Shown here one piece after another: positions 332 to 22,630 of a stretch of DNA of 43,636 nt. The stretch's first letter is position 1. Each line of letters opens with the position of its first letter. A program made the position numbers and the translations under genes. The stretch is from positions 1 to 43,636 of the forward strand of contig JYFJ02003328.1 in the NCBI GenBank assembly GCA_000934665.2, in the 5' to 3' direction. Source of the DNA: Catajapyx aquilonaris (taxonomy: Eukaryota). The notes beneath the pieces were generated by a model that did not search any database, was not told the origin of the DNA, and saw only the letters and a program-made list of their open reading frames with translations.

Positions 332-332
<1 letters not shown>

Positions 333-1445: not shown

Positions 1446-1450
1446 CTTAA

Positions 1451-1794
1451 GAAGGCCCGAGCTGTTGGACGATGCATGCTGGACACTCTGACAACACAGG
1501 AGCTTGCTTTCGAGTGTGGGACATGCCCCAGAGCCATATGTCATCCAACGCCACAAACCGTTTGAAAAAACCATCGCCCTCAATGCGATCGAGTTCCAAG
1601 CGAAGGCAAAATGGTGGCTCTTTTGCACCTCACAAAGATGGTGAGGAACCAGTGAGGATGTCACCTTCCTGAGACCTTTCCGTCTTTCAGACTCCTAAGC
1701 ATAGTACTCTGACTTGTCCCACACTCGAAAGCAAGCTCTAGTGTTGTCCATCGCCGAGTGTCCAGCACCTACAACTGCGAGTTGCTTCGCTTTT
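1451..1794. mobile_element. TTAA-flanked MITE-like element
   Basis: Inverted arms tgctggacactc..gagcttgctttcgagtgtgggaca (~1477-1523) and tgtcccacactcgaaagcaagctc..gagtgtccagca (~1714-1767); TTAA at 1447-1450 and 1795-1798. Confidence 0.55.
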
Positions 1795-2705: not shown

Positions 2706-2779
2706 ATCCCCGCCAGGAATCGAACCTGGGACCATCTTCATTGCAATGCAAGAGTGCTCTGCCACTGAGCTACAGGGAT
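2706..2779 (-). ncRNA. tRNA-like cloverleaf T1 in POP1a intron (Ala-like)
   Basis: ATCCCTG-TA-GCTCAGTGGCAGAGC-ACTCTTGCATTGCAATGAAGATGGTC-CCAGG TTCGATT CCTGG-CGGGGAT. 7-bp acceptor stem extendable to 11 bp; irregular anticodon arm; no downstream T-run. Confidence 0.7.
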
Positions 2780-3142
2780 TAGATGAATGCCAGATCTCCC
2801 TCCCCCATCCACCCAGGTACAGAAAAAAAATCAGCCAAATTAAAAGCATAAAATAAAATAAAAGGCTTGCTTTCAAGAAAAATTTTGATACCATTGCCCA
2901 TTACAGACACGAGTAAATAATTATTAAATGTTGGGGGGTTGCTGATAATAATCACACCTAAATCTGAGTTTTTGTTCGCAAATAAACCAGCCTGAACTAT
3001 TGCAAGAGACAGCAACTACCGCCTACATCAAAGTGTTCTCATTCAAATTGAATCATCAATGTAAGGTAGCATTCAAGTTGCAACATCCACCTTCAGGACT
3101 CCAGCCACACAGGCGAACTGCAGTTTCCAAATTACACTTTAC

Positions 3143-3475
3143 AGGGGAGGCGAAGTGGCGCAACGGTAACGTTCGCGCACACGGATGTTAAGGTCTCGGG
3201 TTCGATCCCAACCTGGGGACACCCCCTTCATCTCGTGCAGAGTTCAGGGGTCGCCTCTGGCTTCGTCTCGGGTGGTATTTCCTACAGTCTAAACCACCCG
3301 GGGGAGTTCACTAAAAATGGCCACAGCGTCAGATGCACTGCACCTTGCACATCCGCTCCTGTCATCCTGCCCGTGGGCCCGGGCGATACGTACAAAGGCT
3401 CCAATGTACACAACAATTAAATAAAGGTCCATGCGATAAACCCTGATGGGTGAAAGCATTACCCAACCAATTATT
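3143..3475 (+). mobile_element. tRNA-derived SINE, copy 1
   Basis: A-box AGTGGCGCAACGG, B-box GGTTCGATCCC, body shared with 11140-11454, short ATT tail, and a 14-bp TSD aaattacactttac (3129-3142 and 3476-3489). Confidence 0.85.
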
Positions 3476-5351
3476 AAATTACACTTTACGAAGGGCCAAT
3501 GTGCATTAATATCCGATCCATCTGAATTACCAAATGCAAATTCCGTTACTCATCCAGTCAGAAACCTTAATAATCCCTCAATATGTCCAGCCTTCAAACT
3601 ACAGACACGATCTCAAGGCAGGTATACTCGAACCCCCCATAGAGGCATAAAACCCATTGTACACCAATGTTACCTCGAAGCAGCTCAATTTTTGTGGCAA
3701 TTAAGTCATGCATGGAGTTAAATAACTCTTCACCTGTCAAGGCACATGACCACTGTGTGGCTTATGCCCAGTTCATTCCCTTCAATCACTTTTGTGATAC
3801 TAGAATCTTTGCTCAACCTAAATGGCCTACAACAGGTTTTATGCAACTAGAGTGGTACGTTTCTAGCAGTATACCCACCTTGGTTCACCGTGTGACATGT
3901 AATCCAAAGGTAATGCCAATCTCCCACCTGAAAGCAATGTCAGGACGCAGGATGCATTCTCAATGGGAAAAAAAGATGGTTCACTCCATCTCAATACGTC
4001 TTGGTAATGGCGCATACGAAGCAATTGAGCTAAAAGATCTCCGCCCCTTCTACTTAGTCCTTACTTTGCATGCGTAATGGCCTAACATTATTTTCATCAT
4101 AAAATACTATCATAAAATCCTCAAGGGTGCCCAATGTTTGAGGCAGTGATTAGCAAAAAAGTTGCAGGAATATTTCTGGTAAAAAAAAAAAATCCCAGCA
4201 TATGGACGTTGGTATGAAGTTGGTTGGTCATGTTCATGGGGAAAGAAGGGTCACAAGGGTATTGTTCGAGTAATCCGTTGCGTCATAGAATTTCCAGGAG
4301 CAGATTTTAGCCTGCATACCAAACCATTGGTGCATTTGGGTTTGGCACTTTCAGGCTCTTACTCTCTTTCTCTAAGGTAATGTAGCCTAACCTCACAAGT
4401 CGTTCTGCAGTCTTCACCATGTCCACTTGCATAAAAGTGCAAATTTTACATCGCAGTCGTCACTCAAATCATGAAGCATTGCTTTTATAAGTAAAACCCA
4501 CATATCAAGAGTCTACATGTCGTTGAGATCGTGGTAAAATTTGCCCCATTATGCCGAAACAAGGTGCACGGCTGCATATTCCTGTTAATGTCGTAATAAA
4601 TTATAACTCACCAGCACAGAATCAACCGCAACCTCACAATTTCAGCACATGCATAAAATTCTCATTTAATAATTGTGCAACAAGGTGGCCTATCCATTAT
4701 TATCCATTATTTACCTCGCCACTGAATCTTCAGAATTGTACGTAAATGCCGAATGAGAAGCAACGGCCAATTCAGTGCAAGTGGCACGAATAACACAGCT
4801 CTACCACATCCTGTCCTTGGCCGAGGTGTCCACTGCTGCACAAAATGGAGCCTAATGGTGCAGAACCAAGTTCACAACCCTTCACCTGAAACAGCAAAAT
4901 TCTGGCATTAGTTTCACACATCCTCCAGATCACATTCGCAGGTGGCCAAACATTACTTACACGAGTCAGTTACAGCAGGCCTCATCAGCACTTCCTACAA
5001 TATTAATGCTCCCCCACATCTACAAGTACACTCCCTTTTACGAGTTGGAAGCATTTTCCCCACAAATTTCATCACTTTTATGAACCAAGGGGACCTGAAT
5101 TATGTCAACCAGTTCGGCAGTATCATTACCACAAACAAGTAAAAGCTTGAATCCTCTACAACTCGGTCTGACACTGAATTCTTATTTCAACTTCAGAATT
5201 TGCCATTGCCAACACCATTATTTCACTTCATCCTAACCTGACTTTTTCACAAGTCAAACTGCGCATGAGCAGGACTCCCTCCAGAGCCAACCCACAACCC
5301 CTGCTGGAATTCCACTGACTCAAGCTGAATGCTGCCAGTGCAGTGACTTCC

Positions 5352-5424
5352 GCCCCCGCCAGGAATCGAACCTGGGACCACCTCTCCTCGAGAGCGTGTG
5401 CTCTGACCACTGAGCTACAGGGGC
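5352..5424 (-). ncRNA. tRNA-like cloverleaf T2 in POP1a intron
   Basis: Acceptor GCCCCTG/CGGGGGC, D stem GCTC/GAGC, middle arm CAC-G-CTCTC-GAG-GAGAG-GTG, T arm CCAGG TTCGATT CCTGG. Confidence 0.7.
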
Positions 5425-5572
5425 TTCCTACATCTGCAAGACAGCAGTCAGGTAAATACAATTCACCTGCTTTTCCCATCTTTCAACTAAAAGGAAGAAC
5501 ATTCAAGCAGTCATTACGTGTTGTTCCACAAAAACAATTAAAAAGGCACAACCATGGCAGAGAGTGACCCTA

Positions 5573-5644
5573 GCCCCCGCTGGGAATCGAACCCAGAAAC
5601 ACACTTGACGTCCAGTGTGCACTCCGACCACTGAGTACAGGGGC
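5573..5644 (-). ncRNA. tRNA-like cloverleaf T3 in POP1a intron
   Basis: Acceptor GCCCCTG/CGGGGGC, D stem ACTC/GAGT, middle arm CACACT-GGACGTCA-AGTGTG, T arm CTGGG TTCGATT CCCAG. Confidence 0.7.
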
Positions 5645-6381
5645 TTCCCACTGACCACACATGGTTCCACATCACTCGCGTGCGCACACACATACACACA
5701 AAAATAAAATAAGTGCAGACTGCATAGATATTGGCAATGGCAATTTCCAAACATGCAAATGAATTTAATTCCTCCTATTTATGTAGGTCAGATCAGGTGG
5801 TGCAGTGACTTCAGAAATCATTCCCCATAGTAATCCGCACCAGATGAATGAATAAAAGCATCTCCAAAAGCAGCCAGACTGCCCAAGTTGAGCGCTCAAC
5901 TCATACTGCCCGACCACTTTTAGAACCGCATTTAATCAATCACACCACAACCACCTTCAACAAATGCTTCGATGAAGTTTCCCCCATCACAGCCAACCCA
6001 ATGGTTAAGCTTACCTTGCAGGTGACCACACGTGAACCCATTTCCAACACATGCAATTGTGGTAAGGTCCTGACACGCAAATAATCATGAAATGCAATCC
6101 CAATGTACACATATCCACTTGCTCTGAGTTTCAGTACTTAAAATTCCACGTCATAGGAATATTTTTTCCCTGCATTTAGATGCAGCAAGAACCATCTGCA
6201 ACAAAGCTAGTTATGATCTCATCCTATGTGGCTGCTCAGAAGCGACAGCATAATGTTGCAATACTAATCCGCAATTAAATTATTATTTTTTAAACATTGT
6301 TACTTCCTTGGCTTGGAGGAAACCCTTCTGTCAGGGTGAGGTGAGTAATGGGAAGTCATCGACTCCAGCATGGTGAGAGGT

Positions 6382-6452
6382 TCCCCCGCCGGGACTTGAA
6401 CCCGGACCTCGGATTGTGTAACCCGTGTCTTTGCCAGTTGGACCACAGGGGC
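6382..6452 (-). ncRNA. tRNA-like cloverleaf T4 in POP1a intron
   Basis: Acceptor (G)CCCCTG/CGGGGG(A), D arm GTC-CAACTGGCAAA-GAC, middle arm CGGGT-TACACA-ATCCG, T arm CCGGG TTCAAGT CCCGG. Confidence 0.65.
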
Positions 6453-6710
6453 GCCAATACCCGCTCTGTCATTTCGCATCAGGGTGAGATTGCAGTGAAT
6501 GGATCCAAAGAGGTTTTCTCCAGGCCTTCTTCCATCATAGTGATTTAACGGACAACATTATGCCGCCCTTCCACTTCCCCAAAGTGCTCTCATTTTCTTT
6601 CAATTTCAAGCACACGCTTGGCAGTGAAGAAATAACACACAGCGAAAAGTGCTTGCTCGTCATATTCACACCCATAAGCTCTGAACCTTGTAGTGGGTCT
6701 TTCGTTTTTG

Positions 6711-6783
6711 GCCCCCGCTGGGACTTGCACCCAGAACAGCACCGACCCCTAGGGACAGCACTGCACCACTTGGTTTCAGGGAC
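6711..6783 (-). ncRNA. tRNA-like element T5 in POP1a intron (counterpart of T8)
   Basis: Acceptor GTCCCTG/CGGGGGC, reduced D arm ACC-AAGT-GGT, long middle hairpin CAGTGCTG..CCC-TAG-GGG..CGGTGCTG, T arm CTGGG TGCAAGT CCCAG. Confidence 0.6.
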
Positions 6784-6844
6784 TGTTTTTGTCACCACTA
6801 CTTGGCCTCCTCCCCCCCGAACCCATTGGCATGTCACGTTTCCA

Positions 6845-6919
6845 ATCCCCGCCAGGAATCGAACCTGGGACCAGCCTCATTGCAATGCATTGAGTGCTCT
6901 GCCACTGAGCTACAGGGAT
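6845..6919 (-). ncRNA. tRNA-like cloverleaf T6 in POP1a intron (near-duplicate of T1)
   Basis: Same acceptor, D and T arms and immediate flanks as 2706-2779; middle arm CTCAATGC-ATT-GCAATGAG. Confidence 0.7.
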
Positions 6920-7192
6920 TAGATGAATGCCTCTTTCCCCTCATGGGCCATTTCAGTCAAGCACCAGTCATACACGGTAAGTTTAAGTGAGACCTTCTAT
7001 AAAACACTGCCATTCATAATCACCTTCACGTATTCCTTTCATACACATGTGTATTCAGCAATAAATAGGCACAGGCGAAATATTAATTAAGAGCATCAAA
7101 ATTCGTTAATTGTGCCTAAGGTGCCACGAATATACCTGGATGGAAACGTGTGTGAGTACGGAGACGTGTTGGAAATGAAAAAGACTCCAAAC

Positions 7193-10100
7193 CTGAAGTG
7201 CTGATCAGTCTTCTCTCTCCTCTTTACCCTTTCCTCCATCCGGCAGGCGGCTGAGTCCGGACAGTTCCAAGGAGCAGGCAGCTGCCCTTGCTCGTAAGCC
7301 GTGGCAGCAGCCTCCCTAAGCCCCCCAACTCGAGCCCCGCGGTACACTAAGCTGATCCAGAAGGCCATGGCCCAACCCGGAGGGACAATCACATCCCAAC
7401 CACAACCATAGCCTGGAATCATTTCGAAGGATGGGGAGGGGAGAGGACAGGACAAAAAAGAACATTGCATCAAGTAAACTTCGGAATGGCTCAAACGGCA
7501 AGACTTCTCATCTCACTTTTGGGCCTTCAATATTGCCTCAGGTTGTAAAAACAGGTCACAAAGAGCCACTTTTTTTTTGCATGCTAGCAAGGGTCTCGAC
7601 ATGTGACGATTCAATTAGGACTACAATTTTCAAACTTCACCGTTCTGGTGAATTGAATGACAAATGGAAGTGAAAGGCCCAAAATACGAGATGGGGGGGA
7701 CACAACAAAAGCAAAATGGCGGCCCGCTGTGATTGTGGGTGATGGGAAAGGAACAAAAAAAATAAAAAAGTGTGCAAACCATTCCTACCCAGCCTCTTCT
7801 CTTTGGGATCTTGGCTGCCGGGTCTTTGTATAAGTATGACTGGAACTCTGGCTTCATCTTGGCCCAGGTCCAGCGGAGTGCCGGGAATGGTGTGCCTGGC
7901 TCTTATCTCATTCATCTGGTTATCCGAGGTCTTGGTGGTGGTTACCTCATCCCTCACCCAGGCTTCCCATAAAGGGGATGCACTCAGCAGGGTAGGGAAC
8001 TCACCCAACGATTCCCCTGTTGTGTCCCATGTTACTGTACGAAACAAAGGGGTAGAGGTCACTCACAGCCACATCAAGCTAACGAATATGCGGTAAAAAA
8101 ATATATATTCCAGTGAAACTCCTGACGTACCATCGATGTCTGGTAAAACTTTAGTCCTCTTGGGTGGCAGCAACACCCTCGGATCTCTGACAGTCAGACC
8201 TAGTATGGCGCGAGGAGGAACCTGAGCTGGTGATAAGGCGCCTTCCAGATCCTGCCAGACAGCTCGCTGACCAGCTGCCGCTTTCTTCCCATCATCCGTG
8301 GCATAAAAGTACTGCCACCATTGAGGGCGACTGCGCCCTCGCTTTTGTTTCACTCCTATGCTCTCATCGCCACTGCTAAGATCGCTTTCCAGAAGCGGAG
8401 ACAGCACAGTGTTGTTGTTCTGCTTCACACACCCGTTGGCATCCCTCTTGACCGCAATCCCCTCCAAGTGGTGGCGCTTGAGGCCGCCATTTGGAGAATC
8501 ACGTGGCTTCCTTGCTGGCCTTATGTCCACAATATTGGCAGGTCTGAGGCAGCTGCTTAGAATGGCACCAGACGATGGTCCTTGAAGCCTAAATCGATTC
8601 AGTGTGTCCTTCAGCAATGCCATTCGGACAGCCCCATTGCTGAACTTGGGAACCCGTATAAATGGGATGTTGCGAGTGGCCAGTTTAAGCTGATCGACAT
8701 TTTTCCTGGGTCGTGATTCTTTGGCCAATTTCTTACGCTTCACATTCTCCTCATCTTCATCTTCCACCACGCATGGTATTATCTCATCCTCCAGGGGCGA
8801 CAAGCCAAATACCGCCACCAGCTCGTCCACAACTTCCTGGTAAAATGAGGGGTGGACCCAAATCCACAAGTTGCGTGAACGCTCAACATCCATGGGCAGC
8901 AATCCATGCTTGACCCTGGCATGGCGGAGGATCCGACCAGATGTGAGCCAGTCGAGGGGCCTCCACATGAAGGACACCTCCCCAATGGCTCCCTTCGGAT
9001 ATTCCCCCCTATGGAAGAGGACAGCGCTCCCTTCGCGGTTCCCACCCAGCAAGCTCTTGGCTGCAAAAGTGAGGCCGCAAGCAGGATCCGTTATGGCAGA
9101 GAGGCCTTCTAGAAGCTTATTCTCAGGGCCTTCTAGCTCTATACATACGTTGAAGGAGATATCCTGCAAGCCCCAGCCCGGAGGGAAAAGAGGAGCGATA
9201 ACAAAAGGCTGTGGGATTGCTTGTTAAAGCGGTTAATGTTATTTTGCATTAATTTGAAAATTTAATTGGATTTTTACTTGACTAATTCCTTCACATTTGT
9301 GTTCATGTCAAGTGCATCAAAAACTTTGCAAGTAATTATTCTGGAAAAGTTCCATGCAATCGAACAATCAACGAAACTTTTGACAAAATCATTTAAATGA
9401 AATATTTCGTTATTTTAGCAAATGTCACTGCGTGTCGAGACGCTCGTTAATCCCCGTGTTAGCAATACCCTACTGCTACCCACCAGAATTCCTCGGGTTA
9501 ACTTTACCTGTAATAGGCAATTACTTGCACTTGCTCGGTAGCAAGCTCTCACACTTTTGTCATTCGGAAAGTTGGCAATTTTATAGCCCCACTTTACAAC
9601 CACGTGAAACCTGCAAAAACAAGGGAGTCCTCAGAACCTTCACACTTTTTCTTTCTTTCTTTTCTTTTCTTTTTTTTTTTGCATTTCATACAATTCGGCA
9701 TCTCCTTCTGCTTCATCCAAAAGTAATAATAATCAAGGCAGCCACTCATCAAAAACATTAACTTCCACCTACCTGCTTCTACACACATGTACCCCCTGAG
9801 CTTTTCACAGCAAAAGTGATTCTCATGCAATGCGCACACAGTTGGTAATAAAACACACAGGAAACACATGACTATATGAATACTTTTGCTGTGAAACTCT
9901 CAAGTCAGAGTCAAGATGATGTCCTGCTCCTTTATTCTCTTAATTACCTACCTCATGGCTTAAAATCCTGAAATGAATGTTTTATTTGCAACATAACCAT
10001 CTCTTGTCTTTTTGGCCTTTTTTTTTGCCCCTTCCCAGCCAACCCACTTCAATTGTATTTTCATTCAAGCTGCTGCGACCTTCAGTTGTGATACCACAGT

Positions 10101-11026
10101 GGATAAGTGAAACTCACCCCCGCCGGGAATCGAACCCAGGACCACGCCGGTTGGGCGAATGCTCTAACCACTGAGCTACAGGGGCTCCCCACTAGGCACC
10201 AGGTATACACAACTTCAGTATGTTTTCCCAACCCCCCCTCCCACATTTCCTCAAATTAACATTGGGGGGGACGGAAAAGAAAGAGAGCACACCCCCTCGT
10301 AACATTTCACTCACCTTTTCGCATGCCACTTATGAGTTTCCAACCATACATTTTTCCTCTGCCGCCTGTTATACTCAGCCAAGAGGTTACTAGGTCTTCT
10401 ACGGAATTTTCGACTAGGTCTCTTTGACTTGAGTGGCATGCCACTCTTTTCCAACTGTAAGCAAAATGAAATATAAGTCTTTTTCGCAACCGTGACAACA
10501 AAACAGCCCACGAGACGTACCTGATTAATGTGAGGCTCTCTCAGTCTCCTGGGCATTCTGTTTGCATTGTGACTCATTGCCCTTCTCCTCATGTACCTTG
10601 GGAGTTGTTGGAACACAAGCGCAGTCTTGGTGGGGTTGTCTAGAGTGGAACATGTCGCATGAATATATGTTCCAAGTGTAGGCATGCGCCACCAACTGAT
10701 TTAGAGAAACCATTGCTATTGTTGCAAGTGGCGTTGAAAAATCAATGTCATATTTTACTGTAATCTGGCCTTATGTCTTCACAAAAGCGTATAATTTACA
10801 CGAGTCAAACATCTCTAGTTCCAAGAAAGGACGTGTCACACACAAAAATTCTCCCATGGCCTGGCTCACCTATAGACTGCGACATGGTTCCAAGCTCCTG
10901 CACCCTGGCAGCCACAAACTTTGTCATGGCCAGATCGGAGGTCAGCTCTTGTTGACCCCCTGCCAGGATGTCGAATTCTGTCTTCTGGGGCTCCATCTTG
11001 CACAGCATCCTTCTAAAGAGCTTCAT
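7193..11026 (-). CDS. POP1: RNase P/MRP protein subunit POP1, copy A (3'-partial; remaining exons presumably beyond the window start)
   Basis: Phase-consistent GT-AG exons: 11026-10870, 10639-10521, 10454-10315, 9610-9508, 9163-8131, 8034-7789, 7412-7193. The protein has POP1 hallmarks [55 protein letters not shown] and [22 protein letters not shown]. No RPNY-containing next exon was found in 1-7192. Confidence 0.93.
10116..10185 (-). ncRNA. tRNA-like cloverleaf T7 in the POP1a intron after the WHAKR exon
   Basis: Acceptor GCCCCTG/CGGGGGT, D arm GCTC-AGTGGTTA-GAGC, middle arm CGCC-CAACC-GGCG, T arm CTGGG TTCGATT CCCGG. Confidence 0.7.
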
Positions 11027-11139
11027 GCGAACCTCTATACTTAGTCACCCTCTTGTCTTGAAGCTAATCATCGTGCCTTACGTAGCGTCTGAAAAAAAAA
11101 AATCAATATTAATGCCCGTCGCATGTTAATGGTTATATC

Positions 11140-11409
11140 GGGAGGCGGAGTGGCGCTGCGGTAACGTACGCGCCCACGGACGTTATGGTCCCGGGTTTGA
11201 TCCCAGCCCGGGGACACCCCCTTGATCTCGTGAAGAGTTTAGGTCGTCTCTGGCTTCGTCTCGGGTGGTATTTCCTTAGACTAAACCACCCGGGGGAGCT
11301 CACGAAATGTACCCATAACAGTCCCTGCACTGCACTTTGCACATCCCCTCCTGCCCATGGGCCCGGGCGCTTCAATAGGCACCAATGTACAATAATAAAC
11401 TACCCCAGG

Positions 11410-11454
<45 letters not shown>
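11140..11454 (+). mobile_element. tRNA-derived SINE, copy 2
   Basis: Homologous to 3143-3475, with a long (ATT)n tail and a 17-bp TSD atgttaatggttatatc (11123-11139 and 11455-11471). Confidence 0.88.
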
Positions 11455-11456
<2 letters not shown>

Positions 11457-14435
11457 GTTAATGGTTATATCACAAATAACATAGTTTGGTGGTAAAGTTG
11501 CATCATTGATAGTAAAATGGGCCAGCCAGTTCGATTGCCCTCCATTTTGTTCCGCCCACTCACCATCCACCCACCCACCCACCAAGCCCGCCATTTTGTG
11601 CGACGTCATATTATTCGCCAAAAAATATATATTTTTACGCCCAAGTTTACGCTGCTAAAAAACAACAGGCAACGAACCGAACCCAGCAAACTTTAAACTG
11701 AGCTTAAATTGCCGCGCGTCGACTTAATTAACGTCGGGTTAAAATATTTAACCGAAGCTATTTTAACCCGGTTTATGTTGGGTAATTGGTAGCCTGCGAA
11801 TAGTTTTATGATTTGATATTTTTTGTACACTGTAAATATTGCAGTGGTCTGACCACCCTTACAAGATGGCCCGAATAGAACGGTTTTCCATGCCCGCTGC
11901 TTCCGGGGGCTGATTGCACGCTGGGGGGGCTCTGTACAACTCCGTACATTCCCATGCATCCGGTCCCGCCCCTGGTTGCACTCACCACCGCCTGTGGCCC
12001 GCCCCGGGGCCGCCCCACCGGCCCTCGTCAATCCTGCGTCGTTCCATCGAGGAAGGCGGAGATGGAATAAAAAGGAGGGGGATGCGTTCTGAGGGGGTGG
12101 GGCAGGGCGAGTGGGGCGAGGTTGCCACGTCGACCACGCTGCGTTGCCAAGTCGGGCAGGCGCCAGATTTCAACGTTTCGTTTCGTTCCAAATTGTTTCG
12201 AATGGGCCTTTTGGATGGCTAACAATGAGGCTTTTTTCAACACATTGTTGCATTGTTGTGGGGAGGTACCTGAACGGTACGGAGGTGTTTGTAACGGGAA
12301 GTGGGTTGCGTGGCGTGGCGCATGTGCGGGGTTGTTTTTGAGGGCAAGGCAGGAGCCTAGCCTCGCAGGCCAAGGGGTTCCTCACACCACCAGCCAGACG
12401 GCCATTTTGAATCGACCCACTCCCACAAGAACATTTTTTTGGAAAGAAAAAAAAAACGTAACCCGATGTTAGCTTCCGTAATGTAATTCTTCTGTTGTCG
12501 ATAGGTTGGAGGTCAACGAACTCACCTGTAATTATCCTGACCATAGTATCGGCGTAGTAGCTCACTGAAACATATGCTAGGTTATGCGAAAGGCGCATCA
12601 AATCTATGCAAAATCATGCCATTTTTGCACGTAAGTCGCAATAGTCTTTGCTCACGAAGGGCATTAATCAGATGGACATGAACCGCAGTGAACCTTGGAG
12701 AGTAACCAGGGTTAACCCACCCATACTAAAGAATTTCCATGTAACATTTCTCCGCTATGCAATAATCAGCATCGTTCTCTACTTGAAGAAATGAGGATTT
12801 CCACAGAACCCATCCAAATGAATCAAATGCATCACCAACAGATTATTCTGCATATAAGACCCTTATAGAGAAATAATTATGACAAATTCAGCCCTTCATA
12901 TCCGGTTACTTCGCATAATGAAGCCACTTTCGAGGCACTACGTGAAATCCAGGCCTAAGTTCTACTGATATTGGATCCGCCTACCATGAAACAAAGCCTT
13001 TGTTACGAGGCAGTTCTAAGAATGGTGATGACAAAGAGCAGGTCGTTTCTGTGTATCCGACTCGCGTATGCAGAGTACGGGCAACGTAAGATTTCGGAAT
13101 AATGTGCCACGCCATCTTTATCTACGCAGTCCTCTTGCTACCCTGAGACTCTTTCCCCCCCACCACAAAATGTGGGTCGCGGTCTTAACATCCCTCCAGC
13201 CTTCTTCCCAAACTCCTTCTGGTCCCTCGAAGGAGACATGCATGGAAACCCGATGATTTGGTGGCATGCAAGGAGTGGTAACCCACCTTAAGTTGTGGGG
13301 AGGCCAGGTCGCCAGCGGACCCCAGGACTCGCTGGGAGCTGGCATGGCGGCCATTTCCTGCTGCAGAGAGGAGGGAGAAGAAGGAAGGAGGCCTCTCTGT
13401 CTCCCACAGGAGGACGAAGAGGATGGGGAGGGTTGGAAGAGGGGGACTCCTGGTCTCCCCCTTGCCCCTCGCTAGCCTCGCACCCGATCAGGAACGGGCT
13501 GCAAAACAGGGAATTGTGTGATCCCAGCAGCCGTGTTCAGGCTTCTCCCACACGGCGCTGTTACCCACTCTATCCCGATTACGAGGGACAGGAGGGAAAA
13601 TGGGTTTCTTTTCAAGTTCTTTAGACTTGTGGTTAGGCAAGGTTCTGCAAAGGTGTAACATGTAACACAGGGAAGTAAACAGAACAATGCATTCATAGAA
13701 TTGTAAGGTGTTTGTGTACATGTAACAGAGGGAAGTAAACACCAATGCTTTCATATCACCGGAGCTTTATTTTAACACTAATTCCTTAGTGTGTACATAG
13801 GAATGATTTCTCCCAGTGGAAGTCAGTCAGAAATCTCTAATTTCTCAGATCTTTCCTGCAAGCAACCAGCCAGGCAATAAATGCATGGTCCCTCACACCA
13901 GCAAGTTCCTTCATATTATGGCAGGCCTGCCCATTATTTATGACCTACTGTCAGTAACAAGACAATACATGACATGAGTAAGCCACCCCCCTGTAATCCT
14001 AATAAGCTGGAGTCTAAATGCGAAACCTAGTACCAGGGTGAGCAAATTGTCAGTAAAAACATGGAGCTAGGTCTTACAAACTGGCGGTCCATGTGGCACT
14101 GGGACAATAGCAATTTGGGCAGATGTAAAAATATGCCCCATTAGTGAATTGTAATCTTTGCATGAAGCAGACAGAAACCATCTTACATAAGTTACAAACA
14201 AACATTCAATGGGTATCCCTTTGGTTTAGAACTGCTTGAATAACAAACCGAAGCACAAATGAACCAATCATTCACATCCAACTGGCAGTAAAATACTGAA
14301 CAATCTGTATTTAGCTCATCGGGACCTTAGAATCGAAAATTGGAACCTTTGCCATTTCAACTGTAACAGCCGACTGATTTCTACAAGTTGACTACTACAT
14401 CCCCATCAGAATGGCGTTATTTAAACCATTTGAGA

Positions 14436-17400
14436 TCACTGGGTAATGGCCAAATTAGCCAAGTGGTACTGATGCGAATCTGGGTTCCGTACAAGCACCT
14501 TAAGGTCCCTATTCCACGGCCTAGTGCTTATCAGTTTCAGCAATCCGGGAAGTGCTATGAATCCTAATCCTCTTCCCTGGCCCTCAGTCGCTGAGAATTT
14601 ACCCTGGCAAGCAAATCCAAATGTCTCCCTGGAGCATGCCTCACGAACTGTGGTTACATCTGCCAACCACAGAGAACGGAGCTTCTCATCATGTTGCATT
14701 CCCAAATCTGGCAAAGCATCAGCTGCAACCTTATCCTTTTGCCGATTGATTTGCTCTTGGTTCTTCCTTTTTTTCCTACGTTCCTGTTTTCTGGGAGTAA
14801 AATCCATTCTATTACATACCTATCGACATGAAATAGTATTATGTGTATTATAATATATTTAGAGGCTACTTCCTACCCAACACAATTATGTAGTATGCGT
14901 ATCAGTAGGATATAAATTTCAAATTTGTAAACTTGCATTACAAGCCTCCATTACATATGAGTAAAGATTGTGATAATAAAAGTGAAAATTTCCTAATCCT
15001 GGCATCCGGGCTTGTCACAAGCACGGCAAGAAAAAGCCACTCAGAAGCATTTCATTAAGATATTAAAGAAGTAACATGAAAGTCATGTACTTAACTTGGC
15101 CTGACCAATAACTTAACCGTAATTTTACATTAATTACATTTACAGCAAGGAGCCAGGGATCCTCAAACATTAGCTAATGAATCCATCTTTAAACGCTGCC
15201 CCAGCAGGGCTCAAAAAGAGTTTCATTGATCCTTTGATTATTCTGGCTTGTTTCATTGTCCAAGAAATTAAACTAAGACTGCTTTAAATTCCCTTGGAAA
15301 TTCAACCGTGCACCAATTTGGCTTTAATGTTCACTGGAAGAGTAATGTTCACATAGCATTTCCCATGCTCTTCTTACATGATTCATGTATACACTGAATA
15401 ATAATGTCAGTCAAACTATTACCAGTTAATGTTATGGTTGCAAGCTTACATAAATGATGCCAAATAATTTCGGGTTTATTTCAGGTGTGTACAGATACCT
15501 TAACATGGAAAAGTTTGCGGATCTCTACTTATACCAAATGTGGCAAAAAATTATGCCCCGAACATAAGTCAAGACTGTAAATAAATTCATACTTAATTCT
15601 GATGTGCTCGTGTCTAATTTCCTCCCTCTCAGCCTTGTGTATGTCCTTGTGCTGGGGTTCCGTCCAACCCTTCCTCTGTATGTCGATATTCTGAGGCAGG
15701 CAAATCATTGCTTGGGGTTTAATGTGGCCTTTTTTCACCAGGTTGATCTTGACGGCCACCAAGCAGTTCATCTCTTCTGCAGGAATCTTTTGCAAAAGTG
15801 ATCCTTTCATCTTTTGTTGTGGAGACAAGGCTTCACTCAGTAATTTCAGTCTCATTTTGTTTCTCAAAACAACAGGAACAAGCTGCACCCCCTTCATTTC
15901 TCCAGAAGCAGCAGCCCAGTCTTGTATTAGTTCACTCCACGGAGAGTGGAAAGGAGCCACTGACCCATACTTGACGTAGTTGGGACGATGACTAGGTGGC
16001 AACCTACAAGAATATATCGCTAAAGAGCCTCACCTAACCTGCACATTCATGATCTTGTCCCTTACAACATTATCCTGATAACACTTATGGATTATTATAT
16101 TCTGACTATTTCAATCACCGTGTCTTTTAAAACACGTAGCTTCAATTCCTACACCTGCCTATAAACTTACTAGTTCCTCCAAAGTTATATCCACCTTGAT
16201 GTGCTGGTGTGGCTCCGAGAGATATGTCAGAGTGGGATGTCTTGGCTTCCGACAGAGCCTTCCCAATTAAAATGGCATCTGAACATCCTGAGTCAAAGAG
16301 AGGCACCTCCTTACCTGTAGGTCCCTGCCTCCCTCAGTTATATCATTATTATTTATATTAACCTATGCTATGCTGCTTGGCCTTAGTTGCCCTGGCTCCT
16401 TCCACTAATCTAACTAGAAAACTTGGTAACGGTTTTTTTTAAAATAACCTGCTTAAGGGCTCCTTAACCCTGTAGCGGGCATTGTTGCCTGAGGGCAACA
16501 ATTAATTTGTGCAGGTGCCATAAGCTTCAACATTGGTCCTGGAAACCACAGTGTGGCTTGATGTCACAGTTAGTTTGTTAGCTTCCGCTGGATGACATGC
16601 AATGTCGACAATGTTACGATCGGGATATGGTATGAAGCGGAGAGGAGCCAAGGTCGTTGAAAATGGGGCGCGAAATTTGAATTTGCTGAAGCAGCAATTG
16701 TTTCTGGAGCTGATTAGATATAGGTGCAGATATTAAATATCCAATTGCATGTGTAACACTACAAGAGTAGCTCTCTCGTCGCCATTTGAGGCCATTCTAA
16801 TTTTGCCAGCACAATTTCATCACATTTTTTGGCGGCGCAGGCACAATATTGCTTGAGGTTTGTCCTAAGTCATTGTACTATTTTTATTCAAAAACGGAAA
16901 CATGTACAGATATGACCATTACTACGTTTTAAAGGCCCGGCGATTACAATTTGGACTGGAATATAGATGGCCCCGAGATCTCAAGGGGAGCCGGTAAACG
17001 AAAGGGGATCGTGACCCCCCACCCCGAGCTGCATGAGACGGTGGAAGGGTGGGGGTTATGATCGCCTTTAGTTTTCTGGTCCCCTTTGCGATATGGATGC
17101 CATCTATTTATCAGATGAAATTGTAATCACCGGACCTTCAAAACTTAGCAAAGGTTATCTCTGTATGTGTTACCATTTTTGAATAAAAAAATACTCGCCA
17201 TGACTTTTGACTCACCCGGTGTAACTTCAAAGTCATTGGGTCAGAGATGACCAAAACATAATAAAAACCATCCTTACGTCGCATATGATGAGAAAAGGGC
17301 GTTAGAATTTTTTTCTTCCCCCAATCCTAAATGTGTGCAGTACAGGGTTGATGTGATAATAAGGTGGATGTGGACATTAAGTCTGGATGAATCATTGAGA

Positions 17401-20400
17401 CCCTTTCATCCCAGACTTGTCACCAGGTTGAAATTGTATGTCACCAAGTAGCTTGGGTTGAACATATTCAGAAGAGTGGGAATGGTTTAAAAAATTTACT
17501 AGCGCACAATTAGCATTCCGATTGCCATATGCAACGTTAACCCTAGTGTTTTGTCGATTGCAGATAATGTTTAAAACTATTCTGTTGGGACAAAAAATAT
17601 TTGAGCTCCCCAAAATCACAAAAAACAACGAATCAACTTACGACATAACACAAAAGGAATGGCATGTATCCACATGTAGTGGTAGATAGTCACACTTGTT
17701 TTTTTTCCAAAAGCAGGCCAGCATTGATCTTGAAAAATTTTCCCATGAACTTATGCAAATACTGCCTGGAATTTCCCTTACTAGTTACTGCTAACTTAGC
17801 AGCACCATATTGCAATGGTAATGCTAAGTTAGCAGTAACTAGCAGTGGGACGAAAATTCCACCCAATGACATTCATCAGAAATAAACTACTTCAATTAAA
17901 ATAATGGCATTGTAGGACTTTATTCTCCACCATGTGGTAATACTAGCCTCCATGTCCAAGAAAGTCATTGAACACTGCGTGGGATCTTGACGTTAGAAGC
18001 CTGAATTGATGTCACCAGTGCGTCCACTCACCTTACGTAAAACTCAAGCCACTTGGGCATGAGGATTGCTTCATGTTTTCATAAATATGGACTAGTGCTA
18101 TTGACGTCAGGATCTGAATTAATCATGGATTCATTGCAATAATTTTGCTGTTTATAGCCGGTAATGAATGCGCGACAGCATTGGGCTGTAGGTCCCAGAT
18201 GTTATCAATGGAAATTTGGCTGAAAAGAGAGGGCTCTATCCTTATGGTGAACCATGCAGATGTCCATAAGCCATGAGTCTTCCCTTACCCTGCAAAATCT
18301 TGCTTATTTTAAAAGGAAAATAAATAAGATTTTTTTTTAAAAAACATTTCACTATAAGACAATCCACTGTCAGTGTTTGCAATCATATTTCACATATGAC
18401 TGCAACTATCTACCTGTAAATCACAACTAGACTGATATCAGCAATGTTCTTCCAATTCATAAGATTTTTTTTTTTTTTGGACAACAGACTGTAGTTGTTG
18501 TTATTCCTTTTTAATTGCAAGAGCCAAGGCAACTAAGGCCATGAGACATTGCTGGTTGTCGGTGTGACATACCATTACGTAGTGAAGCCCTACTACCAAC
18601 ATCTACTGATGTGTTGTCAGCCTATTCCACTACCCCTGCATATAACCGAATGTCTGTTATATCAGGAGTAAAAATACGCAGGGCCTTATGAAAGTTTGCC
18701 GGGACCAGCCTTTCGAGTCTGTTAAAACCGAAAGTCTGGTATAGCCAAGGCTGTTATATCCTGATTCAACTGTATTATTTTATGTGCGGTCAATAAAACA
18801 TGAGCCATTCCTATTGTGGAAAACGTGTGGGACAGGGAATAATGCGATTGGGAGGCACAACCTTCAAACCTTAAAGAAATTTATGTGAATGTGCATGTGA
18901 GGTTAGAGGGAGCAGCTGTCACATCACATGATCAAAAGGGAAGCAACACACGGAAAGTCGGTGCTTTAGTGGGTTGCTTCCCATTTGATCACATGATGCA
19001 CCGCCTGGTCCCTCTAGCCGCGCATAATTTTCTTTAAGGTTTGAAGGGTGATCCCTGCCAATGTGTCCCATGGGTTTTCCATGATAAAATTCGGCTCATT
19101 TTTTATTGACTGCACCTAATGTCATCAATTATTGTAAAACAAAACCTTTAATAGGACCTTCTCAAAGGAGAAAATACTTATCCTACCTTTCTTGCCTTAC
19201 AAAAGGCACATAACACATGCCACCATATCCGTTTTCAAACTGAACTTCAAACCATTAGCTCTTCTTAATTAATTTCAAACTCATCACCAACTGGCAGAAT
19301 AAAAAGTGCCTCGTTTTCGTCTGATGAGCAATTCAAGACTACAGAAATCCCATAACTTTTCTTTTATCTGTATTTTTCTCATCTGAGGAGCTCCCAAGCA
19401 AAATCAGCTCTATCCGACCGTGTGAAAAAATGAGTTTGAAGTGGCATTGAATTTTCCATGTTGTCCGCTACCTAGTATTTTGTATCATGACCCATTTGCT
19501 CCGTTCAAAAGAATGAAGCAGGAAGTGAAAAATAAGTACACAGGATGGAAGGTAGGTGAGGGACCATAAGAAGGATTCAGACATAAGGCCCATTCACACA
19601 GGCCGCCGCCGGTTTTGGTTTTTGGTCGCGTTGACACCGCGGACCAATCTGACTCATGTAAACAAGCACAACCCATTGTTTAGAGCTTGTTTACATGGGT
19701 CATGATTGGTCCGCACGGTCAACGCGACCAAAAACCAAAACCGTCGATGGCCTGTGTGAATGGACCTATAAGGGATGTATAAACTACCAGATACATTGGA
19801 TTTGTGCCCATTCCAAGGGACACAAATGTGAGCTGAGATGGGACTACCAGCACACACAACCAGTACCAGTACTCTCAAGTAGCACGACCCCCTGTTGTTT
19901 TCAGGCCGTCAATGGTGGAGCCATCATCAGTAGCCCTGCCCTCAATGGCCATCTAACGGTCACGGCTTGGGTGCACGGACACAAGCCACCCATCAAACTC
20001 ATTCGCGTGAAGGGCCACAAGGAGTAAGCATGAATAATAGTCTAGCACCATCCTGGAACAATAAAATTACACCAATTGCATTTTCAACCAACAAATTACC
20101 AACGTCACCATCTTGGAGAAGTGGTCTTTGTACTCACAGTCAGAGTTGCAAGCCTTCAAAGTTCACCAAATATCAAAAACAAAATTTAAAAATCTTGTTG
20201 TCTTAACTCCACTTATGACTGAACCTAATCCAACATTACGATTATGCACAAAACAATCCCACTAGGCATGCAAAGCATTACAAACTGCCCGAATCAAGAA
20301 CCAAAGTACCTGTGTTCACTAAACAGAAGCTAATTCGTTGCATGTGGTGTCGTTTGGCCCCTGCTGGGAATTGCACCCAGAACAACACGTGTTTTCACAC

Positions 20401-22630
20401 AGTGTTGCACCGCTTGGAACAAGAGCGATTTGTCACCACTACAACACTAACGGAAGTTAGGGGATAGTATTTCAAGAAGACATGCAGCAAAGTAGCAACA
20501 TCTTAATCACATGAATCACTAGTTTTAGTCAGATGTAAAGACCCACCAATCATTGAAATTACTCTACCCTGCAGCTAGCTTCAAAATAATCGCATTCATT
20601 GCTTCACAGAATGAAAACAAGAGTCAAACCTGAAATACTCATCAGTGTTCTCTTTCCTCTTGATGGCTTCGTCCTTTCTGCAGGCCTCTGAATCGGGACA
20701 GTTCCAAGGTGGCAGAAGCCTTCCTTGCTCAAAAGCTATGGACGCTGACTCCTGCATGCCTATCACCTTGGCGCCTCGCTTCATCAGGCTCTTCAGGAAA
20801 GCATTTGCCCAGCCTCGCGGTAGGATCACATCCCATCCACAACCAAAACCTGCAACAATTACACACTCAGTATGGGATCCAAATGTGCAACTCAACAAGC
20901 GCAAAATTATATTGTTGTTTATGAATAAACATTACATTTTTTTTAGATCACGCTAGTCCATTATTCTATGATCTTAGGGCAGTAATACCATATTTACAAC
21001 CTTTGCATGGCTACCGTACCAGTCTTTTCCCCATTTCTGTCTTGCACACCAGGAATCTGAACTAAGATAATTGGCACAGCAGACTCATCATCCCCTAGAT
21101 CCAGCAGGCCTCCTCCGGGAGCAAATTGGGCTTTCAGGTCATTTAGATGCTGGTCTGACGTCATGGTGTCTGTCACATCTTGCCGCACAATCTTGTCCCA
21201 CAGTGGTGAGAAACTCACCATCGACGGAAGCGTGGCAATGGAGCTACCAGAAGTGTCCGAAGTGTCAGCTGCAAAATTAAATTCAAGCTAAGTAATGAGC
21301 GGTGAATAAAATCATGGCATACCTCCGGTAACGGACAAAACACTGGGCTTAAAAATTGACTTAAATCTTCCACACACCCTCAGTGTCCGGTTGTGCGTCC
21401 TGTTGAACAACCAGACGGGGATCTCGCACCACCACACCTAACACGGACTTCGGTGGTAACTGCGAGGGAGACTGTACACCTGCCATTGCCTTCCAGGTAC
21501 GATTCTGCACTTCAAATGCCGTCTTCCTGTCTTCCGTGGTATAGAAAGTAGTCCACCACTTGGACAGGCTCTGGCACCGCTCGAGCGTCACAGCCCCAGC
21601 TTTTCTTCTGACATGCTCACCTAAAATTCTAGCTGGCTTCAGACAATGCTGAAGAGTAGTTAGAGACTCGCTTCCTAAGACTCGGAATCTGTTCAGCAGG
21701 CCTTTCAATGCGCAAAGTCGCACAACGCCATTGCTGTACTCCATGTCTTTACGTCTCTTTTGAGGTGGTTCAGCCTTTTCCTCGAAAGATGAGACCAGCT
21801 GTTCCCAAATATCTTCCCAGAAGGACGGGTGGGCCCAAATCCAAAGGAGGCGCCTTTCATTTTCATCCTTGCTTTCGAGGGGCCTCCACATGAAGGCCAC
21901 TTCCCCGATGGCACCCCTCGGATACAAACCACTCTGAAAGAGTAAGCAGCTTCCCTCATGGCTTCCGTTCAGGTAGCTCGCAGCCGCAAAAGTCAGTCCG
22001 CACAACTTGCTTGTGAGAGAGGACAGGCCATCCACAAGCTGATTTTGCGGGCCTTCAAGTTCGATGCACACATAGAACGAAAGATCCTGCAATATTTGAG
22101 AAAACAGCATCAGATTTGGATCCACAGCACTGTACGCTCTAACGAGTACCTGAACTGTGCAATTGGAAGACAGCTTCTCATTGGGAATGTCCGCTATATT
22201 ACAACCCCATGCTTGAACCATCCGGAACCTGCAACAGCAACATACTTTTTCCACAAGCACTCACAGGTCGTCGAGACAAACATGAAAAACAGCAATAATT
22301 CAATTTGCTTGAAATCCGTGGTCCTTGCTGCAGGCTACCACGGCAGCGTTTGGATATCACCCCCGCTGGGAATCGAACCCAGAACCACACCCGATTCCAG
22401 GTGCTGCTCTGACCACTGAGCTACAAGAGTTCGTCACCATCCACCGGGGCAGCCCTTAGCAACGCACCTTTCACCAAAATCATCTGAACAGCCCATCTGC
22501 GCATCTTTCATGACTTTTGCCTCAGACTCACTCAATTTCCCTGCTCACCAAACAACGAGAGGCGTACTCACCACTTGGCATGCCAATCGTGCGTTTCCGT
22601 CCGAGCCGACGTGTCATTGTTACTTGACAT
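14436..22630 (-). CDS. POP1: POP1 paralog, copy B; N-terminally truncated and diverged, ~693 aa
   Basis: Exons 22630-22572, 22228-22150, 22086-21378, 21268-21020, 20849-20630, 16003-15593, 14790-14436 (2082 nt, open frame). Intron positions and phases match copy A where comparable. Motifs ETHDWHAKWFRM, LLWIWAHPS, GFGCGWDVILPRGW, RLPPSHRPNY, VLVRNPDSHQYHLA. The start codon is inferred. Confidence 0.85.
16853..17223. mobile_element. MITE family C, palindromic copy (Tc1/mariner-like end)
   Basis: Imperfect ~180-bp inverted arms; right end GACTTTTGACTCACCCGGTGTA. Confidence 0.62.
17768..17860. repeat. Short inverted repeat (hairpin or MITE remnant)
   Basis: Perfect 21-bp arms ctagttactgctaacttagca (17781-17801) and tgctaagttagcagtaactag (17822-17842). 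Confidence 0.75.
18783..19116. mobile_element. MITE family B, internally deleted hairpin form
   Basis: TA-TGTGCGGTCAATAAAA ... TTTTATTGACTGCACC-TA; the arms abut directly. Confidence 0.72.
19587..19766. mobile_element. MITE family A, full palindromic copy (PIF/Harbinger-like)
   Basis: TAA-GGCCCATTCACACAGGCC ... GGCCTGTGTGAATGGACC; the element is near-palindromic throughout. Confidence 0.7.
20357..20426 (-). ncRNA. tRNA-like element T8 in POP1b intron (counterpart of T5)
   Basis: Acceptor GCTCTTG/CAGGGGC, middle arm CAACAC-T-GTGT-GAAA-ACAC-GTGTTG, T arm CTGGG TGCAATT CCCAG. Confidence 0.6.
22359..22430 (-). ncRNA. tRNA-like cloverleaf T9 in the POP1b intron after the WHAK exon (counterpart of T7)
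   Basis: Acceptor ACTCTTG/CGGGGGT, D arm GCTC-AGTGGTCA-GAGC, middle arm CACCTG-GAAT-CGGGTG, T arm CTGGG TTCGATT CCCAG. Confidence 0.7.

Follow-up and report, generated by a model that had tools for sequence, protein, structure and literature searches.

POP1 is the largest protein of RNase P/MRP, and we questioned why two tandem POP1 copies in Catajapyx aquilonaris hold a cluster of tRNA-shaped folds on their sense strand, and whether RNase P uses these folds to limit the output of its own subunit. The question came from an original prediction made on one stretch of DNA (contig JYFJ02003328.1, 43,636 nt; hereafter the window), which listed nine such elements. The answer we favor, at a probability of about 0.5, is that they form a low-copy family of structured, tRNA-derived modules, specific to the lineage, which multiplied locally, and that their presence in POP1 is incidental.

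All nine tRNA-shaped folds were recovered where they had been placed, from e2706 to e22359 (Table 1). A covariance model built from the nine elements (R1) and run over the window, on both strands and with filters off, returned exactly nine matches (55.6–85.4 bits), all on the minus strand, with a runner-up of 12.5 bits (E 0.69). Both POP1 paralogs are also on the minus strand, in agreement with the predicted sense orientation, and the VWDE/ARMC8 half was free of elements as claimed (no R1 match at 23–43.6 kb on either strand). Mutual homology across all nine was detected with blastn, and their GC content was 0.54–0.66. ARAGORN recognized six of the nine as tRNA; five passed the Rfam tRNA gathering run (43.1–49.8 bits), and in the E-value run e6382 was a sixth above the gathering score (35.3 bits vs 29). 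The remaining three missed that score, e5573 and e6711 having only sub-threshold tRNA-Sec or mascRNA matches in Rfam and e20357 no Rfam match at all. The shared strand (9/9, two-sided p = 0.004) and the confinement to the 22.4 kb half (9/9, p ~0.0025) are both unusual if the copies are taken as independent, an assumption that local copying violates.

Table 1. Positions of the tRNA-shaped units, the POP1 paralogs and a contrasting SINE family in the window.
Feature	Positions	Strand	Parts	R1 (bits)	Rfam tRNA (bits)	Basis or remark
e2706 unit	2678..2799	minus	fold 2706-2779, leader and trailer	80.0	44.5	
e5352 unit	5324..5444	minus	fold 5352-5424	85.4	49.8	
e5573 unit	5545..5664	minus	fold 5573-5644	77.9		
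e6382 unit	6354..6472	minus	fold 6382-6452	55.6	35.3	
e6711 unit	6683..6803	minus	fold 6711-6783	63.8		
e6845 unit	6817..6939	minus	fold 6845-6919	79.5	43.1	
e10116 unit	10088..10205	minus	fold 10116-10185	77.6	44.1	
e20357 unit	20329..20446	minus	fold 20357-20426	62.0		
e22359 unit	22331..22450	minus	fold 22359-22430	83.9	47.3	
POP1a	7193..10700	minus	exons ~10315-10700 (POP1_N), ~9507-9610, 8131-9162, 7788-8034, 7193-7411 (POPLD)			Pfam, spliced contig joints, homolog mapping
POP1b	14439..22230	minus	exons ~21400-22230, ~21018-21263, ~20632-20850 (POPLD)			
POP1b, POP1_C exons	within 15532-16029 and within 14439-14819	minus				Pfam, tblastn
High-copy tRNA-derived SINE (other family, for contrast)	3145..3410	plus, antisense to POP1				word depth
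Second copy of the high-copy SINE	11140-11391	plus				81% identical to the first

POP1 is present in the window as two tandem copies (Pfam POP1_N/POPLD/POP1_C; PDB 6ahr_B), POP1b being sister to POP1a with branch lengths of 0.62 and 1.59. All POP1b exons in Table 1 were placed with Pfam and tblastn. The spliced contig joints in POP1a (9162/9507, 8034/8131 and 7411/7788) have GT..AG ends on the minus strand, and further exons of this gene lie past position 1, outside the window. A spliced RNA contig reaches 1,192 nt past 7193, out of the window, and no POP1_C exon was found within 1–7192, which bears out the assumption that the six elements below 7193 are intronic. The intron of e10116 has its donor at 10315/10314 and its acceptor near 9611/9610 (homolog mapping), and e20357 lies in the POP1b intron between the POPLD exon and the POP1_C exons. 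The first POP1b exon that could be detected begins ~129 nt downstream of the 3′ end of e22359 (acceptor site ...ttgcag/GTTCCGG), and no N-terminal exon of POP1b was found upstream of ~22230 by tblastn or homolog mapping; the predicted intronic placement was thus verified for eight of the nine elements and stays putative for this one. Distances to splice sites vary: a 5′ splice site lies 129 nt from e10116, the POPLD-exon donors are ~200, ~274 and ~410 nt upstream of e20357, e6845 and e6711, respectively, and four elements are deep in introns, more than 700 nt from the nearest splice site.

The determinants recognized by RNase P are the acceptor and T arm, and these are the parts of the fold that the family has kept. 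Pairing amounts to 98.4% in the acceptor stem and 100% in the T stem, and the 7-bp and 5-bp stems are intact in every copy, with double changes at five pairs and a covariation score of 0.307 compared with 0.200 in shuffles (0/500 shuffles reached 0.307). The best-conserved alignment columns are those of the A-box and B-box regions, which are degenerate in e6711 and e20357. At the position of the anticodon arm each copy has a hairpin of its own (4–10 bp, loops of 3–8 nt), and the family as a whole lacks the 5-bp stem and 7-nt loop of a canonical anticodon arm. In line with the remark that canonical anticodon loops are mostly missing, they are irregular in three of the six ARAGORN calls (“anticodons” of 2, 2 and 4 letters), and three elements were not called. 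The cloverleaf is the minimum free energy (MFE) structure for e5352 and e5573; for the bare fold of e22359 the MFE structure is a long hairpin with no cloverleaf, and e6711, with degeneration of both the D arm and the T loop, has an MFE z of −3.22.

Most copies are also surrounded by a leader–trailer closing helix, absent from the original description, with 7–14 bp of complementarity. Closing helices had −13.5 kcal/mol compared with −7.25 ± 1.13 kcal/mol at random intronic sites (0/400 sets as low), and among individual copies e5352 had −13.2, e5573 −16.0, e10116 −18.5 (14 bp) and e20357 −17.6 kcal/mol (13 bp; 0/500 shuffles equally low), with e6711 closed by GUAGUGG/CCACUAC. Seven of the nine copies leave nucleotides unpaired between the closing helix and the first acceptor base. 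In e2706 the acceptor stem is instead lengthened by 4 bp across the expected cleavage site, with an outer helix GGCAU/AUGCC, and that of e6845 is likewise 4 bp longer and covers the site. Sense-strand units fold more stably than antisense units in 9/9; for the closing helix alone the sense strand is stronger in 7/9, and its termini differ among copies and include G-U pairs. Between relatives, 90 aligned closing-helix cells comprised 50 unchanged, 9 changed yet paired and 31 broken, besides 5 gaps, counts that depend on the alignment. A conserved 7-bp helix common to e5352 and e10116 that was noticed by eye was dropped, as the outcome of the covariation analysis depends on the alignment.

The family is not specific to POP1. 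Genome-wide copy number was judged from contig pile-ups alone, which are a rough guide and count only copies at least 80% alike; on this basis the pile-up over the elements was ~2–14×, against ~8,000× for the SINE at 3145–3410 (word depth ~258,000 vs ~31 in its flanks). Depth was 424 for e2706, 65 for e5352, 132 for e6845 and 126 for e10116, over a background of ~31, and at least 12 contig joints connect halves of different elements with differing letters in between. Copies are present outside POP1, one of them inside another RNA contig (depth 76). The genome-wide abundance that the original prediction had named as evidence against itself was thus not seen: the estimated family size is a few tens of copies in ~256 Mb of contigs, and the density at the POP1 locus far exceeds what that number would lead one to expect.

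Relationships among the copies indicate how the cluster arose. The folds of the youngest pair, e2706/e6845, are 95% identical, and the anticodon arm accounts for all 4 differences; identity over 113 nt is 91%, the differences being confined to that arm and the trailer. The folds of e5573 and e22359 are 81% identical, with a homologous anticodon arm; e5352 and e10116 are 78% identical and share colinear flank blocks (32 nt upstream, 19 nt downstream), so that the unit spans at least 215 nt; e6711 and e20357 have an identical 14-nt leader and agree at 33/36 positions in the 3′ half. No close partner of e6382 was found within the window by blastn. In three of these four pairs the closest in-locus relatives are at non-equivalent positions, implying that they arose by copying rather than by inheritance through the gene duplication. 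Retention since the POP1 duplication had been considered for e10116 with e22359 and for e6711 with e20357, and is weakened: e22359 is nearest to the non-syntenic e5573, which points to copying and not retention, and the post-POPLD intron shared by e6711 and e20357 means little because it is the largest intron in both genes.

Each module is ~120 nt long, with a leader–trailer closing helix that encloses a cloverleaf; the A-/B-box regions and the acceptor and T stems are kept, and a copy-specific hairpin replaces the anticodon arm. The family would have spread inside the tandem POP1a/POP1b locus through local copying in direct orientation, which would explain both the clustering and the uniform orientation of the copies. 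Copying could have proceeded by short DNA-level duplication, by ectopic conversion or as a small non-autonomous mobile unit; target-site duplications (TSDs), poly-A tails and clear inverted termini that would point to one mechanism were not recognized around the elements, by eye or in an inverted-repeat search (which gave one 28-nt pair around the cluster, 79% identical, at 5185–5212 with 5731–5758 and without clear termini). Within POP1 pre-mRNA the elements should fold as tRNA-like domains, on which tRNA-processing enzymes could plausibly act. We regard their occurrence in POP1 as most likely incidental, probably without a regulatory role, rather than as a selected feedback device. Incidental copying is weakened by the local density excess in both paralogs of the gene that encodes the largest protein of RNase P, by structure kept better than neutral decay predicts, and by the restriction of the e2706/e6845 differences to anticodon arm and trailer. 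It is weakened further by closing helices stronger than at random sites, by the greater stability of sense units throughout, and by the closing helix itself, for which a Pol III tRNA-type RNA would be too short.

Among the alternatives, we consider it improbable that the elements are ordinary retroposed tRNA-derived SINE copies or Pol III tRNA pseudogenes that resemble one another through diverged master genes. A family-wide SINE body, suggested by eye, was ruled out by a control test: mean flank similarity is near background (upstream 14.1 vs 12.3, downstream 15.1 vs 14.7), pairs above the 95th percentile number 5/36 upstream and 3/36 downstream, and flanks are common to three pairs only. The best conservation in the A- and B-box regions, motifs common to some trailers, the dispersal of copies in the genome and an A-rich run ~88 nt downstream of e10116 (the sole clear A run among the elements) agree with retroposition, and the shared flanks and the A run qualify the original statement that body, tail and TSDs are all lacking, which stands for a family-wide body; TSDs were not recognized by eye or in the inverted-repeat search. 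However, no Pol III terminator (T4 or longer) lies shortly 3′ of any of the nine, as had been predicted (first sense-strand TTTT at +29 to +239), and the few tens of copies contrast with the pile-up of the neighboring genuine SINE. Nor could retroposition starting at +1 give conserved leaders upstream of +1 or pairs with shared upstream flanks, and random insertion cannot yield nine copies in 22 kb. Small MITE-like DNA-transposon units that spread by local hopping, with inverted termini forming the closing helix, would account for the leader–trailer complementarity, for clustering within 20 kb and for a unit of ~110–215 nt that takes in sequence upstream of the fold. We regard them as very improbable, given the identical orientation of all nine copies, termini that vary by copy, use G-U pairs and form the stronger helix on the sense strand in 7/9, and the failure to find TSDs or shared termini.

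The remaining alternatives assign the elements a role in RNA. Negative feedback would result if assembled RNase P, together with RNase Z, cleaved nascent POP1a/POP1b pre-mRNA at the sense-oriented tRNA mimics in competition with splicing. POP1 in this arthropod lineage would then have collected RNase P/Z-cleavable, helix-insulated sense modules through which the holoenzyme restrains POP1 output; we rate this model as plausible but quite unlikely. It is consistent with nine sense-only, locally concentrated elements in two paralogs, with intact acceptor and T stems and compensatory changes, with stronger sense folding, with the unpaired nucleotides beside the first acceptor base in 7/9, and with a low copy number, which makes the local enrichment real. 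RNA contigs bear on it in both directions. One contig set was taken as RNA-like because its spliced joints are missing from the DNA runs, and only the parts that it covers were used: introns holding or adjoining e10116 are retained in it (depth 13.6 and 8.2 vs 23 for spliced exons) and two other POP1 introns have zero cover, but contigs run uncut over e5573 (5518–5774) and e10116 (9507–10285). Against feedback are also the pairing of e2706 and e6845 over the expected cleavage site, the POP1b exon not detected upstream of e22359, the non-syntenic nearest relatives, and members of the family that lie outside POP1, among them one within a different expressed RNA. The elements also have no counterpart in the POP1 loci of other eukaryotes that were compared. 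Among 16 POP1 loci of other eukaryotes (14 distinct, 83.7 kb; best 37–38% protein identity to the query, none closely related), ARAGORN found tRNA-like elements in 0/16, Rfam gave 0 matches, and the best R1 match was 23.2 bits and antisense; the POP1 protein search itself gave a top identity of 43% and no close relative. With ~250,000 windows scanned, a chance tRNA-like cluster in an RNase P gene is not unlikely. Functional intronic RNA domains with another role are the least unlikely of the alternatives, although still unlikely. They could be structured, nimtRNA-like enhancers of splicing, or intron-hosted tRNA-like small RNAs that RNase P/Z sets free; in the small-RNA case the closing helix would hold the intron halves together. 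The combination of closing helix and cloverleaf and the nearness of e10116, e22359, e20357, e6845 and e6711 to splice sites favor such domains, and the nimtRNA cloverleaf is reported to raise splicing efficiency in a position-dependent way (PMC7722341). Set against them are the four deep-intron elements, no conservation in the 14 distinct POP1 loci, and 31 broken cells of 90 in the closing helices of relatives, compared with 50 unchanged and 9 changed but paired. Precedents for an effect of intron cleavage are divided: self-cleavage by the intronic Cpeb3 ribozyme is reported to lower host mRNA (PMC10919898), but slowly cut introns still splice, so that cutting an intron need not lower mRNA (PMC2995048), and intronic tRNA look-alikes were not processed as tRNAs in 293T cells (PMC7722341).

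The POP1 elements resemble several known systems in part. Like mascRNA/menRNA (MALAT1, NEAT1; RF01684), they are sense tRNA-shaped domains in a Pol II transcript, and their acceptor and T arms suit RNase P and RNase Z, but they reach only 21–26.8 bits where the gathering score is 42.5, are intronic and multiple whereas mascRNA/menRNA lie at the 3′ end of an lncRNA, retain tRNA-type D and T loops, and have a closing helix. In Drosha–DGCR8 cross-regulation an enzyme cuts within a transcript and thereby reduces the output of one of its own subunits; the POP1 case is alike in that the sense transcript of an enzyme-subunit gene contains folds resembling the substrate. In both comparisons, and in that with the Cpeb3 ribozyme, cleavage of the POP1 elements is only predicted. 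Unlike a conserved autoregulatory device, the POP1 mimics have no counterpart in the 14 distinct orthologous loci. Our literature search found no description of a tRNA-processing enzyme under feedback through a mimic of its substrate; if POP1 pre-mRNA were cut at the elements, this would be the first control by RNase P of its own subunit through tRNA mimicry and a further natural case of intron cleavage in competition with splicing. The nimtRNAs are nuclear copies of mitochondrial origin that look like tRNAs and are reported to affect splicing but to undergo no tRNA-type processing (PMC7722341); they too are clustered in introns of protein-coding genes, and the cloverleaf matters in them as well. 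The POP1 elements differ from them in being nuclear-type, with the GC content given above and a GGTTCGATTCC T loop, in having no recognizable organelle DNA in their flanks, in being all sense, and in belonging to one family, in which the anticodon hairpin varies. Like tRNA-derived SINEs, including the two copies in the window (each with a tRNA-like head and a ~200-nt body), they have a tRNA-related head with A-/B-box regions and dispersed copies; unlike them, they number tens rather than thousands, have no shared body, no recognized TSD and a clear A run in one copy only, and keep an intact fold and a conserved leader upstream of +1. Feedback aside, the family is unusual among tRNA-derived repeats, as a low-copy one whose acceptor/T-arm fold is kept with compensatory changes, with a copy-specific hairpin at the anticodon arm and a closing helix that could form solely in a long host transcript.

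Searches of the window bore out the original prediction that nine tRNA-like elements (named here by their lower coordinates) share one strand. At the predicted coordinates ARAGORN called six minus-strand tRNA-like genes, five of which passed the gathering score of the Rfam tRNA model (43.1-49.8 bits). In a permissive Rfam scan, e6382 scored 35.3 bits as a tRNA, e5573 and e6711 gave only sub-threshold tRNA-Sec or mascRNA matches, and e20357 gave no match. Homology among all nine elements was found by blastn, always minus to minus. A covariance model built from the nine and run over the whole window (both strands, filters off) returned exactly nine matches, all on the minus strand (55.6-85.4 bits); the next-best match reached 12.5 bits (E 0.69). 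Neither strand of 23-43.6 kb held a match, in agreement with the predicted absence from the VWDE/ARMC8 half.

The POP1_N, POPLD and POP1_C domains were each found twice in minus-strand reading frames, with the long exon showing a match to human POP1 in PDB entry 6ahr. As the domain set is present twice on the minus strand, there are two tandem POP1 copies (POP1a and POP1b), with the elements in sense orientation. Protein identity between the copies is 34-62%, and their exon DNA agrees at 70-72%; a tree groups the two as sisters, moderately supported (84/67) and on long branches (0.62 and 1.59). Best named matches of the neighbouring gene ARMC8 were arthropods (64-68%). Splice joints were drawn from X5, a 2022 sequencing run of unrecorded type that we treated as RNA-like: a spliced contig joins 9162/9507, 8034/8131 and 7411/7788, with GT..AG intron ends on the minus strand, and these joints are missing from the DNA runs. 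Because a further 1,192 nt of this contig fall outside the compared stretch, and 1-7192 holds neither a POP1_C exon nor a match to the POP1b C-terminal exons, the six elements below 7193 are placed, as had been assumed, in a POP1a intron that is >7 kb long and continues past the end of the window. By homolog mapping, e10116 is inside intron 9611-10314, with the donor 129 nt upstream of it, and in POP1b the POPLD and POP1_C exons flank e20357. The claim that all nine are in POP1 introns is therefore supported for eight, with e22359 a candidate: the first POP1b exon that could be detected has its acceptor ~129 nt downstream of this element's end, and upstream of the element no POP1b exon was detected.

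POP1b (14439-22230, minus) is a fast-evolving tandem paralog (branch 1.59 versus 0.62 for POP1a) with open POPLD and POP1_C exons; its POP1_N exon was not detectable in the window, and it fuses two POP1a exons, the counterpart of POP1a intron 9163-9506 being missing. A long purine (A/G) tract (9645-9687, minus), at which DNA-run contigs break, closely precedes the acceptor of exon 9507-9610.

The observation of nine elements is confirmed, and their structure is richer than first reported. In their alignment, pairing held in 98.4% of acceptor-stem, 100% of T-stem and 76.5% of D-stem cells, with both-sided changes at five pairs, and fell to 45-54% when partners were slid. The covariation score was 0.307 versus 0.200 in shuffles (0/500 reached 0.307). 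Minimum-energy folds were cloverleaf-like with acceptor and T arm in eight of the nine; the anticodon-arm region is unalignable across the family, its hairpin differing from copy to copy. Sense units were stabler than antisense in every case (sums -399.9 versus -309.2 kcal/mol), with G-U pairs making up 46/324. A feature missed by the original prediction is a predicted pairing between leader and trailer: folding from -20 to +28 relative to the cloverleaf (sense strand) showed, for 8/9 elements, the cloverleaf separated by an internal loop from a 7-14 bp closing helix. Mean duplex energy was -13.5 kcal/mol; random intronic sites matched for geometry gave -7.25 +/- 1.13, and 0/400 random sets of nine reached so low a value. 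Comparison with shuffled trailers gave p values for the nine of 0.33, 0.10, 0.10, 0.44, 0.02, 0.13, 0.008, <0.002 and 0.47, combining by hand calculation to ~1e-4 for elements that are not independent. The helix is stronger in sense orientation for seven of the nine. In an alignment-dependent comparison between relatives, its pairs were unchanged in 50 of 90 aligned cells, altered yet still paired in 9 and broken in 31, so that no position-by-position conservation emerged. In e2706 and e6845 the helix adds 4 bp to the acceptor stem, spanning the position where RNase P would be expected to cut. As modelled, it would be formable only in a long transcript.

Closest pairs among the nine tRNA-like elements
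Pair	Fold identity	Detail	Common flanks
e2706/e6845	95%	all four differences in anticodon arm	12-nt leader, 26-nt trailer
e5573/e22359	81%	anticodon arm homologous	
e10116/e22359	79%		
e5352/e10116	78%		colinear blocks, 32 nt upstream and 19 nt downstream
e6711/e20357	68%	3' half 33/36	identical 14-nt leader

The nine are neither a standard SINE nor standard tRNA genes. The first TTTT lies 29-239 nt downstream, consistent with the predicted lack of an oligo-T terminator, and flank similarity is near background, with common flanks in only three pairs, as expected if no SINE body is present. By contrast, a genuine tRNA-derived SINE in the same introns (3145-3410 and 11140-11391, plus strand) has a tRNA-like head and a body of ~200 nt. 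Both SINE copies are antisense to POP1a. A trailer motif of TGGGTTGGC type follows e2706, e5352 and e10116, and also occurs as an orphan at 5983-6000 (minus) without a tRNA-like fold upstream.

Logan contigs of two DNA runs and X5 were compared with 2601-10300 at 80% likeness, a threshold that misses more diverged family copies. In one DNA run (X1), word depth, which is not a copy number, was 424 over e2706, 65 over e5352, 132 over e6845 and 126 over e10116, versus ~28-31 in flanks; bins with only e5573, e6382 or the edge of e6711 had 32-40, and the SINE ~258,000 versus ~31 in its flanks. Of 23 joints, at least the 12 listed link halves of different elements, with 3-20 differing letters between them; these represent additional copies carrying different anticodon hairpins. 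One copy (depth 76) sits in an X5 contig continuing for ~255 nt unlike the e2706 trailer. The family is thus present outside POP1, apparently in only some tens of copies at least 80% alike, so that nine in 22 kb is a real local concentration.

These relationships suggest copying within the locus in direct orientation, which would undermine the independence assumed in the chance figures for one strand (p 0.004) and clustering (p 0.0025). The one pair of nearest relatives that also occupies equivalent introns is e6711/e20357; as both genes have their largest intron there, the coincidence is weak. Several unrelated dispersed repeats (68-87% identical, both orientations) are also common to the long introns of POP1a (39-1447) and POP1b (16863-19772). 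We consider the most likely reading, with a probability of about 0.5, to be a lineage-specific, low-copy tRNA-derived family of ~120-nt modules that would have been copied locally in direct orientation and whose presence in POP1 would be incidental. A function in the host transcript retains some plausibility because the fold is preserved, a closing helix is present and the elements are concentrated in both paralogs of POP1, which encodes an RNase P subunit. The proposed negative feedback, in which RNase P cuts POP1 pre-mRNA at the mimics, seems quite improbable. With so many windows scanned, it is unsurprising that such elements should fall by chance within an RNase P gene. Unbroken X5 contigs span e10116 (9507-10285; depth 13.6 versus 23 for spliced exons) and e5573 (5518-5774; depth 2.1), so uncut RNA exists, although such contigs are blind to RNA ends and cut products. 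Full-text literature searches found no paper on RNase P control of POP1 via tRNA mimics. In work summarised in PMC2995048, splicing survives intron cutting by a slow ribozyme and is aborted by a fast one, and according to PMC10919898 CPEB3 expression rises when the intronic Cpeb3 ribozyme is inhibited; intron cutting can therefore lower output but need not. Some other intronic role is unlikely, if a little less so; PMC7722341 describes intronic tRNA look-alikes that are not processed like tRNAs in 293T cells and that raise splicing efficiency in a position-dependent manner.

Among other species, a POP1 profile search yielded 16 loci from metagenome contigs (best 37-38% identity), and the elements did not recur: no tRNA-like element was called by ARAGORN in any of the 16 or by Rfam in the 14 distinct loci (83.7 kb total). 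The best covariance-model match there (23.2 bits, rough E 0.004) was at 4358-4426 (minus) of one locus, L003, on the strand opposite POP1, with no ARAGORN or Rfam call. Since the closest POP1 in the protein collection is only 43% identical, a young, lineage-specific device is still conceivable.

X5 also covers the 5'-proximal POP1a introns 9163-9506 and 9611-10314 (depth 8.2 and 13.6 versus 23 for exons), and leaves introns 7412-7787 and 8035-8130 uncovered, a pattern that may reflect retained introns or an alternative transcript. The intergenic and VWDE-side half contains four tandem-repeat arrays (25766-26197, 29958-30337, 34572-34951 and 35366-35919) with units of 50, 16, 95 and 27/113 nt, respectively, and a single N at 25997.
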